Assembly: GCA_044344255.1 (NCBI GenBank)
Contig: JBIJDH010000005.1
Location: 288,001 to 352,000 of the forward strand
DNA from: Myxococcota bacterium
Lineage (GTDB): Bacteria; Myxococcota_A; UBA796; UBA2385
DNA length: 64,000 nucleotides
Direction of reading: 5' to 3'
Shown: piece after piece, positions 61,750 to 64,000 of the stretch
Layout of the letters: the number at the start of each line of letters is the position of its first letter
Position numbering within the stretch: the stretch's first letter is position 1
Position numbers and translations under genes: made by a program
Notes under the pieces: model-generated
What the model saw: only the letters and a program-made list of their open reading frames with translations
Told to the model about the DNA's origin: nothing
Databases searched by the model: none

Positions 61750-62154
61750 GTGCCATTGAAGCCTGATCTGTTCGCTCGACCCTCCCTCTCCCGCCCCTCC
61801 GCCTTCGCCTCCGACTATGGCGAGGTGGGTGGTTCGGGTGCGTCGAACCCCCTCGCGGTGGCCTCGCTCGTGCTCGGGATCTTGAGCTTCCTCGCCTGGG
61901 GCTGCTGCTGCCTCGGCTCGATCATCCCCTTCGTCAGCTTCCTCGTGATGGTCGTCGACTTCTTCCTCGCGGTGGGCGCCGTGGTCACGGGCGCCCTCGG
62001 GGTGAAGAGCTCGGGTGAGACGGGCACGGGCAAGGGCATGGCCATCGCCGGCATCGTGCTCGGCGCCCTCTCGCTCCTCATCCTGGCCGCCTGGGCGGTC
62101 TTCATGGTCTTCTTCGGCGGGCTCGCCGCCATCTCGGCGATCGCGAACCAGTAG
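61750..62154 (+). CDS. DUF4190-like membrane protein
   Basis: LAVASLVLGILS...GKGMAIAGIVLG. Confidence 0.75.
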   Translation: MPLKPDLFARPSLSRPSAFASDYGEVGGSGASNPLAVASLVLGILSFLAWGCCCLGSIIPFVSFLVMVVDFFLAVGAVVTGALGVKSSGETGTGKGMAIAGIVLGALSLLILAAWAVFMVFFGGLAAISAIANQ

Positions 62155-62189: not shown

Positions 62190-62471
62190 TCAGCGGCGGA
62201 CCTCTGGGGGGGGGGCGCGGTCGTCCTCCTCCCAGTGGGCGCCGCCGCGGGCCTTCTTCATCAGAGGGGCGAGCCCGCGGTCCGTCAGGCGGGCCGCCAG
62301 CTCTCCCATCCGGGCGGGGTCGATGACGAGCTCGGTCTCGGAGACCCGCGCCAGCACGAAGTCTTCGAGGGAGATCGCCGCGGCCAGCTCGTCGATGGCG
62401 CGACGGTCGCGCACCACGAGCAGGGCCACGTTGCGGTGCGCGATCGTCCCCGGCGGCCCGCTTGTGCTCAT
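62190..62471 (-). CDS. Small XPB-coupled protein (p8/Tfb5-like pattern)
   Basis: ATGA overlap with the XPB stop; alternating beta/alpha pattern; native codon usage. Confidence 0.7.
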   Translation of the reverse strand: MSTSGPPGTIAHRNVALLVVRDRRAIDELAAAISLEDFVLARVSETELVIDPARMGELAARLTDRGLAPLMKKARGGAHWEEDDRAPPPEVRR

Positions 62472-64000
62472 GCGACGACCTCGATCTCGTAGGCGTAGCC
62501 CTGCTCCGTGAGGAATAGCTGCCGCTTCTCGGCGAATTCCTGCTCGGTGGTGTCGCGGCTCACGATGCTGTAGAACCAGGCGACGTTGCCGTCGCTCTTC
62601 GGGCGGAGCACGCGACCGAGGCGTTGGGCCTCCTCCTGGCGGCTGCCCCAGGTGCCCGAGATCTGGATGGCGACGTTGGCGTCTGGGAGGTCAACGCTGA
62701 AGTTCCCGACCCGAGAGATGACCATGACCGGCACCTCGCCCGTGCGGAACTTCCCGTAGAGCTCGTCTCGCGCCTTCTGGCGGGTGTCACCGGTGATGAG
62801 GGGGACGCCGATGCGGTCGGACATCTCGTGGAGCTGATCGAGGTACATGCCGAGGATCAGCACGCGGGCGCCCGGGTGGCGCGCGAGCAGGCTCTCGACG
62901 ACGTCCATCTTGCGGGGGTTCGTCGCGGCGAGGCGGAACTTCTCCTTGTCGTCGGCGATGGAGTAGATGAATCGGTCCTTCTCGGGGAGCTCCACCCGGA
63001 TCTCGGAGCAGCGGGCGGTGGCGATCCAGCCCTGGTGCTCGAGGTCGCGCCAGGGCACGTCGAAGCGCTTGGGGCCGATGAGCGCGAAGACGTCGCCCTC
63101 GTGGCCGTCCTCGCGCACGAGCGTCGCGGTCAGGCCGAGGCGACGGCGGGCCTGGAGCTGGGCCACCGAGCGGAAGACCGGCGCCGGGAGCAGGTGCACC
63201 TCGTCATAGACGATGAGGCCCCACTTCTCGAGGTCAAACAGCGCCATGTTCTGGAAGGTGTCCTGCTTGGACTTCCGCCAGGTGAGCATCTGGTAGGTGG
63301 TGAGCGTGATGGGCTTCACCTCCTTCCGTTCGCCCGAGTATTCGCCGACCTCGTCCTCGGTGAGGGTGGTCTTGTCGAGGATCTCATCCCGCCATTGGCG
63401 GAGCGCCGTCACGTTGGTGCAGAGGATGAGCGTGCGCATGCCGAGGCGCACGATGGCCGAGATGCCCACGATGGTCTTGCCGGCGCCGCAGGGCAGCACG
63501 ACCACGCCGGAGCCCCCCTCTCCGCCGGTGTCGGGGCCGGCGAGGAAGGCGGCCGAGGCCTGCTCCTGGTAGGTGCGCATGCTCCAGGCGGGGCCGGCCT
63601 TGCGCATGGGGCGGATCTGGATGGCGAGGGCGGCGCCGTCGGTGAAGCCCGCGAGGTCTTGGACGGGGTGGCCGACCTTGACGAGGGCCTGCTTGAGGAG
63701 GCCGCGGTTGCCTGGGCTCACCATGCTGCGGCGCTCGTCGACCTTGGCGTCGAGCAGGTCTCCGACGCCCTTCTGGCTGCGGACCTCCGCCATCAGCAGC
63801 GCGGTGTCGGCCTCGAGCACGAGCTCCTTGCCCTTGGCGAGCAGCCGGAGGCGCCCATACCGGGCCATCGTGTGCTGCACCCAGATCGGCACGTTGGGCG
63901 GGACGTCGTACTTCGACCAGGCGGTGAGGACCCCCACCACGTCTTCGGTCTTGGCGCCGGCCGCGGCGGCGTTCCAGAGCGAGAGGGGGGTGATCTTCCA
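62468..64000 (-). CDS. xpb: XPB/Ssl2/Rad25-like DNA repair helicase (5' end outside window)
   Basis: PLSLWNA at the window edge, R.YQ, LPCGAGKT, DEVH, LGLTATLVRED (RED motif), SRQEEAQRLGRVLR. Confidence 0.93.
   Translation of the reverse strand, partial: WKITPLSLWNAAAAGAKTEDVVGVLTAWSKYDVPPNVPIWVQHTMARYGRLRLLAKGKELVLEADTALLMAEVRSQKGVGDLLDAKVDERRSMVSPGNRGLLKQALVKVGHPVQDLAGFTDGAALAIQIRPMRKAGPAWSMRTYQEQASAAFLAGPDTGGEGGSGVVVLPCGAGKTIVGISAIVRLGMRTLILCTNVTALRQWRDEILDKTTLTEDEVGEYSGERKEVKPITLTTYQMLTWRKSKQDTFQNMALFDLEKWGLIVYDEVHLLPAPVFRSVAQLQARRRLGLTATLVREDGHEGDVFALIGPKRFDVPWRDLEHQGWIATARCSEIRVELPEKDRFIYSIADDKEKFRLAATNPRKMDVVESLLARHPGARVLILGMYLDQLHEMSDRIGVPLITGDTRQKARDELYGKFRTGEVPVMVISRVGNFSVDLPDANVAIQISGTWGSRQEEAQRLGRVLRPKSDGNVAWFYSIVSRDTTEQEFAEKRQLFLTEQGYAYEIEVVA

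Follow-up and report, generated by a model that had tools for sequence, protein, structure and literature searches.

A small protein encoded directly behind a bacterial XPB gene, a probable p8/Tfb5-like subunit of an XPB motor module

The p8 protein, also named Tfb5 or TTDA (GTF2H5; Pfam PF06331; PDB 3DOM, 6TRS, 2JNJ), is a subunit of TFIIH, whose seven-subunit core also includes XPD, p62, p44 and p34. According to the passages cited here, the p52 clutch and the N-terminal domain of XPB form a pseudo-symmetric dimer in TFIIH and the p52 C-terminus binds p8 (PMC6422496); p52 and p8 activate the ATPase of XPB in steps and set a ceiling on the rate reached with DNA, p8 touches helicase domain 2 of XPB, and in fungal TFIIH the XPB subunit translocates only inside the complete core (PMC7708078). 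In the parts of the literature on which we draw, p52 and p8 are called exclusively eukaryotic in a 2025 review (PMC11855273), bacterial XPB is said to have an elusive function (PMC13024598), and mycobacterial XPB shows weak activity when purified alone (PMC3353954). No description of a bacterial p8 was found in the full-text literature searched, the scope of which leaves out most subscription papers. Bacterial Helicase_C_3 proteins are already present in the databases, under generic names.

The window, meaning the whole stretch of 64,000 nt analysed, comes from a genome of 8.18 Mb (95% complete, 71% G+C) and ends inside an XPB gene that is followed directly by a small gene (Table 1). The Atlas clusters closest to proteins of this genome are mostly from Myxococcota, judged from few records. 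We put the probability at roughly 0.7 that the 93-aa product of this gene, which forms a conserved two-gene unit with XPB and has a predicted p8/Tfb5 fold, serves a bacterial XPB-p52-p8 motor module as its third, p8-like subunit. This bacterium is likely to build its own three-component counterpart of the XPB motor module of TFIIH.

Table 1. Positions of the features discussed; plain numbers refer to the window, prefixed ones to genome, contig or locus.
Feature	Position	Strand	Basis
p8/Tfb5-fold small protein, stand-alone, 93 aa	62190..62471	-	ORF, conservation, AlphaFold, fold searches
XPB helicase/translocase, 558 aa	62468..64000; start at 64144, 144 bases past the window end	-	NCBIfam, motifs
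ATGA start/stop overlap (XPB TGA, small-gene ATG)	62468..62471	-	sequence
N-terminal strand, residues 10-19, with invariant His12, predicted to pair with the 593-aa protein	62415..62444	-	complex model, conservation
XPB residues 108-159, post-clutch (DRD-like) domain	63668..63823	-	hhalign against small protein
593-aa p52-like protein	G000:C83:109253-111034 (L063:5253-7034)	+	fused-form profile; unannotated
Fused-layout loci (third XPB clade)	L121-L135, L027, L044, L047, L048, L050, L061		
Second XPB, then 780-aa p52-like protein	G000:C24:45452-49532 (L064)		
Shorter XPB-like helicase, 453 aa, with the overlapping 421-aa gene	G000:C2:62776-65389	-	
DUF4190-like membrane protein	61750-62154	+	

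The XPB gene and the small gene behind it

The XPB protein scores 821.7 bits for the NCBIfam model repair_heli_XPB (NF045503), with a cut-off of 610, and the Walker A, DEVH, RED and VI motifs are all present. The initial annotation had the small gene start in an overlap with the XPB stop codon, and this ATGA overlap was confirmed; judged from the junction, it suggests translational coupling of the two genes. The 93-aa frame given there is also real and shows conservation of the coding type in relatives. Across 23 ungapped cores of 57 codons the identity at the three codon positions is 0.58, 0.73 and 0.48, and in-frame stops are found in 0/23 cores, with the two shifted frames interrupted in 18/23 and 12/23; the antisense frame in register with the gene is nearly open as well, with a stop in 1/23. 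The codon-position conservation thus fits the small ORF as a protein gene. Only residues from about 8 to 72 are conserved, and the tail is variable.

The DUF4190-like membrane protein gene is convergent to the small gene, ends 36 bases from its stop, and is not kept beside the pair in relatives. A 249-nt contig in one of four RNA runs maps to the small gene, from which it differs at 2 positions, with a depth of 4.4, though contigs of this kind cannot show transcription and the shares were small.

A homologue search over 61 related genomes matched 26 of them at E up to 0.01. All 23 matches with E<1e-9, own genome included, lie directly after an XPB, as was expected of homologues tied to this gene, and in every one of these loci the small protein (69-112 aa) is read in a frame separate from that of XPB. 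The junctions are tight, with a -4 overlap in 18 loci, a -1 overlap in 2 and a gap of 2-4 nt in 3. Five weaker matches comprise one fused form, two C-terminal domains of a p52-like protein and two chance hits; those at L025 and L026 are not true members, and those at L028 and L029 belong to the 780-aa p52-like protein and not to a small gene. Beyond the pair, the neighbouring genes differ among the 20 loci examined. The gene upstream of XPB in this genome is of the HlyIII family, so that the Helicase_C_3 gene which the initial annotation had envisaged past position 64000 is absent, and no p52-like gene was found adjoining this XPB.

In 10 of the 21 loci compared upstream of XPB (L001:7145-7170, L136-L155), a TA(G/T) motif resembling a -10 element precedes the start codon of XPB by 12-18 bases, against a mean of 1.7 and a maximum of 8 in shuffled sequences for a pattern that was picked after inspection; it hints at a promoter of its own for XPB and a nearly leaderless message. 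A LexA-box-like pattern is found upstream of XPB in 0/21 loci. The genome also encodes a shorter XPB-like helicase, of 453 aa, in which no N-terminal clutch was seen; the 421-aa gene overlapping it may, we presume, be of the DUF790/Bax1-like kind.

Fold and homology of the small protein

Pfam and NCBIfam scans place the 93-aa protein in no family, and it has no match to Tfb5 at the gathering cut-off of 23.5 bits. Weak matches to Pfam Tfb5, below the cut-off, are found in 5 of 24 close members (best E 0.0088) and in 7 of 81 homologues. A sequence search of the PDB with the 24-member profile returned three rows up to E 10, with p8 in none, and a homologue search with the protein as a single query gave 2 matches only; a profile word search gave 13, none annotated as eukaryotic. 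Scanning genome contigs with the single protein produced two loci, both chance matches of which one is off-frame and the other falls within an unrelated enzyme, the alignments being too divergent for that tool. The Atlas cluster label 'UDP-glucose 4-epimerase family protein' was rejected as an automatic name lacking Pfam support.

The AlphaFold model, built on an 81-row alignment, has a mean pLDDT of 83 with a core above 90, and shows the order strand-helix-strand-strand-helix. In Foldseek, ranks 1, 2, 3, 5, 7 and 8 are Tfb5/p8 (best E 0.015, no row reaching 0.001), and an unrelated acyltransferase takes ranks 4 and 6. The first six rows of the VIA search are all TFIIH chains, their subunit identity being taken from titles, chain labels and lengths: human XPB 171-294 (Z 6.6, rmsd 2.4 over 61 residues), Tfb5 (Z 5.6, rmsd 2.6 over 57 residues), p8 (4.5), the Tfb2 C-terminus (4.3, twice) and p8 (4.3), with the first unrelated row at Z 4.1; these scores are modest, and a Z below 8 on a 60-residue alpha/beta domain may mean a common arrangement. 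The p8-fold reading gains its weight because three methods converge on the same complex, and the p8/Tfb5 topology first recognized by eye is in this way supported by Foldseek, VIA and the weak Tfb5 matches.

An alignment by eye had further related the protein to a segment of the XPB N-terminal region, and this holds: hhalign pairs it with XPB residues 108-159 over 52 columns with a probability of 90% and E 1.5e-6, and with 95% on trimmed profiles. The best structural match of the small protein, by VIA, is the DRD-like domain of XPB and not p8, and since the fold is equally common to the XPB post-clutch domain, the term p8 counterpart stands for role and fold, with orthology not proven. The protein might then be a detached duplicate of this XPB domain that acts on XPB or DNA directly, its likeness to p8 reflecting shared fold ancestry only. 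The position of the gene right behind XPB, the human XPB chain at the top of the VIA rows and a profile similarity to XPB 108-159 that is the highest among the non-fused domains all agree with such an origin. We consider it very unlikely, however, as the N-terminal strand with its invariant histidine lies outside the XPB alignment, other families have the small gene beside a p52-like gene or fused to it, and the small gene co-occurs with an unlinked p52-like gene (see below).

A profile search over 1.84 billion proteins gave 129 matches, of which 69 were scanned with Pfam. Many are stand-alone proteins of 65-110 aa; others are the domain that immediately follows the Helicase_C_3 clutch of long bacterial proteins, or the N-terminal domains of proteins of about 490 aa, and a few are unrelated by Pfam. 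The p8 protein, the C-terminal domain of p52, the DRD-like domain of XPB and the small protein seem to belong to a single domain family. Being homologous to the small protein, the XPB post-clutch domain is likely homologous also to p8 and the p52 C-terminus; the cited TFIIH passages do not state a homology of the XPB 'damage-recognition' domain with a p8-type protein. Some p52-like bacterial proteins of about 770 aa carry an N-terminal SWIM zinc finger together with a clutch and a p8-fold end (P0039, P0094, P0096, P0099, P0105, P0114).

An unlinked p52-like protein and its predicted complex

Pfam Helicase_C_3 is found in three places in this genome, namely the XPB described here, a second XPB, and the 780-aa protein adjoining the latter, which has a p8-fold domain and a WYL-like tail. 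A fourth clutch protein, of 593 aa, was found with a profile built from fused forms and is encoded just upstream of a parA-parB pair. With its model as query the top 18 Foldseek rows are p52/Tfb2 chains (E 7e-7 to 7e-4, whole-chain TM low). Residues 308-399 have the clutch fold (Z 12-13, rmsd about 2 over about 91 residues), residues 531-586 form a C-terminal domain of the p8 fold (Z 6.6 to Tfb5), and winged-helix-like domains are also present; a second clutch before the last domain is probable, with weak profile support (12-38%). Against Pfam the protein reaches 17.1 bits for Helicase_C_3, with a cut-off of 34.2, and has no Tfb2 match. A partner of this kind is easy to miss because it falls below the Pfam cut-offs, and the locus adds the detail that the p52-like partner of an XPB can be unlinked to it.

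The complex was modelled from three chains: residues 300-593 of the 593-aa protein, XPB 1-170 and residues 5-80 of the small protein. The small protein and the 593-aa protein obtain an ipSAE of 0.75 (0.75, 0.75 and 0.76 in three runs), with 0.00 for the best of 3 controls; among reference pairs, 116 of 157 solved and 2 of 215 mismatched ones attain the score mark, a calibration that is only rough for a three-chain job. Agreement between runs is 87% of contacts or more, and the partner pLDDT is at least 80. Residues 396-411 and 425-432 of the 593-aa protein face residues 6-21 and others of the small protein, and residues 400-409 run antiparallel against 19-10. The interface includes the invariant positions R398, G404, E409, R427 and Y431 of the p52-like chain and H12 of the small protein, a histidine that is invariant in 45/45 close members. 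When the 593-aa protein is modelled alone, residues 398-403 are its only internal stretch with pLDDT below 50. The bound segment is not a full p8-fold domain (hhalign below 1%), and the p8-fold domain at 531-586 does not occur in the listed interface with the small protein, in contrast to TFIIH, where two domains of like fold form the heterodimer. The model may owe its score to likeness to solved p52-p8 complexes.

No contact of the small protein to XPB residues 1-170 is listed in this interface, and the control with the small protein and XPB 1-170, in which the p52-like chain was replaced, scored 0.00, which is no evidence against direct binding. The initial annotation had offered XPB or a p52-like protein as the dimer partner; the model favours the latter (0.75) and lends nothing to the former as far as XPB residues 1-170 go, and the p52-like protein, expected next door, is encoded elsewhere in the genome.

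Counting the 593-aa type at E<1e-50, both it and the small gene are present in 21 of 60 relatives, the small gene alone in 1, the partner alone in 2 and neither in 36. The relative with the small gene alone, G006, has a genome 68% complete, and those with the partner alone are G010 and G054; in G054 a contig end interrupts the XPB gene. In the own family alone, the corresponding numbers are 6 with both, 1 and 1 with a single component, and 13 with neither. These relatives are kin and not independent, and the co-occurrence is therefore overstated by such counts. The small gene and this type of XPB mark the same 22 of the 60 relatives.

The 780-aa protein beside the second XPB has a C-terminal p8-fold domain homologous to the small protein (hhalign 89%) and would give a dimer of two like folds as in TFIIH. 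It could for this reason be the real partner, unless the small protein forms a homodimer. The 780-aa protein is present in 59/61 genomes, however, most of them without a detected stand-alone small gene, and is therefore not tied to it, whereas the 593-aa protein tracks the small gene; we hold either form of this proposal to be highly improbable.

Gene layouts, proposed role and comparison with known systems

Throughout the phylum, 32 of 251 genomes matched in a search for the small gene. In distant families it is located directly upstream of a clutch-protein gene in all 12 complete loci (2 more are cut by contig ends), frequently with a -4 overlap; the downstream gene matches Helicase_C_3 in all 12, in 8 above the cut-off. 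No XPB is present within the fetched flanks of these pairs, and XPB is found elsewhere in 11 of 13 genomes. The other two, G205 (L160) and G228 (L168), are 96-97% complete and have the small and clutch genes, with no XPB found by three queries. In a sister clade, XPB is followed directly by a fusion protein of about 490 aa in 14/15 loci, one of them cut short by a contig end, and in the fifteenth the fusion gene lies about 1.8 kb from XPB. The fusion protein has the small-protein domain at its N-terminus (hhalign 99% against the small protein) and a clutch plus one strand at its C-terminus. A tree of 62 XPB sequences contains three clades matching these layouts, with 21 stand-alone, 20 WYL-partner and 21 fused sequences; the sequences were chosen by layout, rooting was by midpoint, the support labels are 0.87, 1.0 and 0.20, and the tree is not read as giving a direction of change. 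All three XPB types occur together in some genomes.

The distant operons, together with the two genomes that gave no XPB match, the winged-helix-like domains of the 593-aa protein and an interface lying wholly with the p52-like chain, would suit a small protein that is a folding partner, completing or stabilising the p52-like protein, with the pair having a DNA-binding or other role free of XPB. Against this, XPB is present elsewhere in most of the same genomes, the small gene is coupled to XPB and not to the p52-like gene in 23/23 loci, and the clutch fold of the partner binds the N-terminal domain of XPB in TFIIH, by the passage cited (PMC6422496). We regard such a role as unlikely and prefer the p8-like third subunit.

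For a subunit of this kind the model and the analogy to TFIIH suggest the following arrangement. Residues 10-19 of the small protein would pair antiparallel with a strand behind the first clutch of the 593-aa protein, and this pairing may order the segment that is modelled with low confidence in the lone chain. The clutch, by analogy to TFIIH, should dock on the XPB N-terminal domain, which would put the small protein beside the second RecA lobe of XPB. Having completed the element after the first clutch, the small protein and its partner might together brace XPB and set its ATPase and DNA-translocation rate. Our guess at the cellular task is that the motor opens DNA locally, during repair or where transcription complexes stall, beside UvrABC and not replacing it. 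UvrB is present in the genome, and ordinary excision repair is thus not obviously dependent on the module.

On balance we lean towards a wider proposal, in which bacteria possess a functional XPB-p52-p8 translocase module with the regulatory trio of TFIIH, older than or parallel to the eukaryotic complex, in which p8, the p52 C-terminal domain and the damage-recognition domain of XPB are three uses of a single homologous domain, and in which the p8 subunit has moved between XPB-coupled, p52-coupled and p52-fused forms. If the partners are real, bacterial XPB has so far been assayed without its regulators, its function can be tested directly by reconstituting the three proteins, and there is a prokaryotic model for how the TFIIH translocase module arose.

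Among the described systems, mycobacterial XPB belongs to the same bacterial XPB family and, in the passage cited, also has an N-terminal domain (PMC3353954). Archaeal XPB-Bax1 is likewise an XPB with a dedicated protein partner tuning its ATPase, as far as the cited part describes it (PMC13024598); Bax1 is a nuclease, whereas neither the small protein nor the 593-aa protein gave a match to a nuclease family. The small protein resembles p8/Tfb5 of TFIIH in being stand-alone, with a core of about 65 residues and the same order of strands and helices, and in its predicted binding to a p52-like protein through the N-terminal strand. It differs from p8/Tfb5 in being bacterial and below the Pfam cut-off, with about 20% identity in structural alignments, in having its gene coupled to XPB, and in its predicted position on a strand-only element after the clutch instead of a full domain of the same fold. 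By comparison with the XPB-p52-p8 (Ssl2-Tfb2-Tfb5) assembly as presented in the cited passages (PDB 6NMI; PMC6422496, PMC7708078), three bacterial components have matching folds: the XPB has a clutch-fold domain at its N-terminus, the p52-like protein combines a clutch with a p8-fold domain, and the small protein is p8-like. Unlike the eukaryotic assembly, the bacterial one has a p52-like protein with a probable second clutch, genes split over two loci, and three paralogous XPB clades with differing partner layouts.
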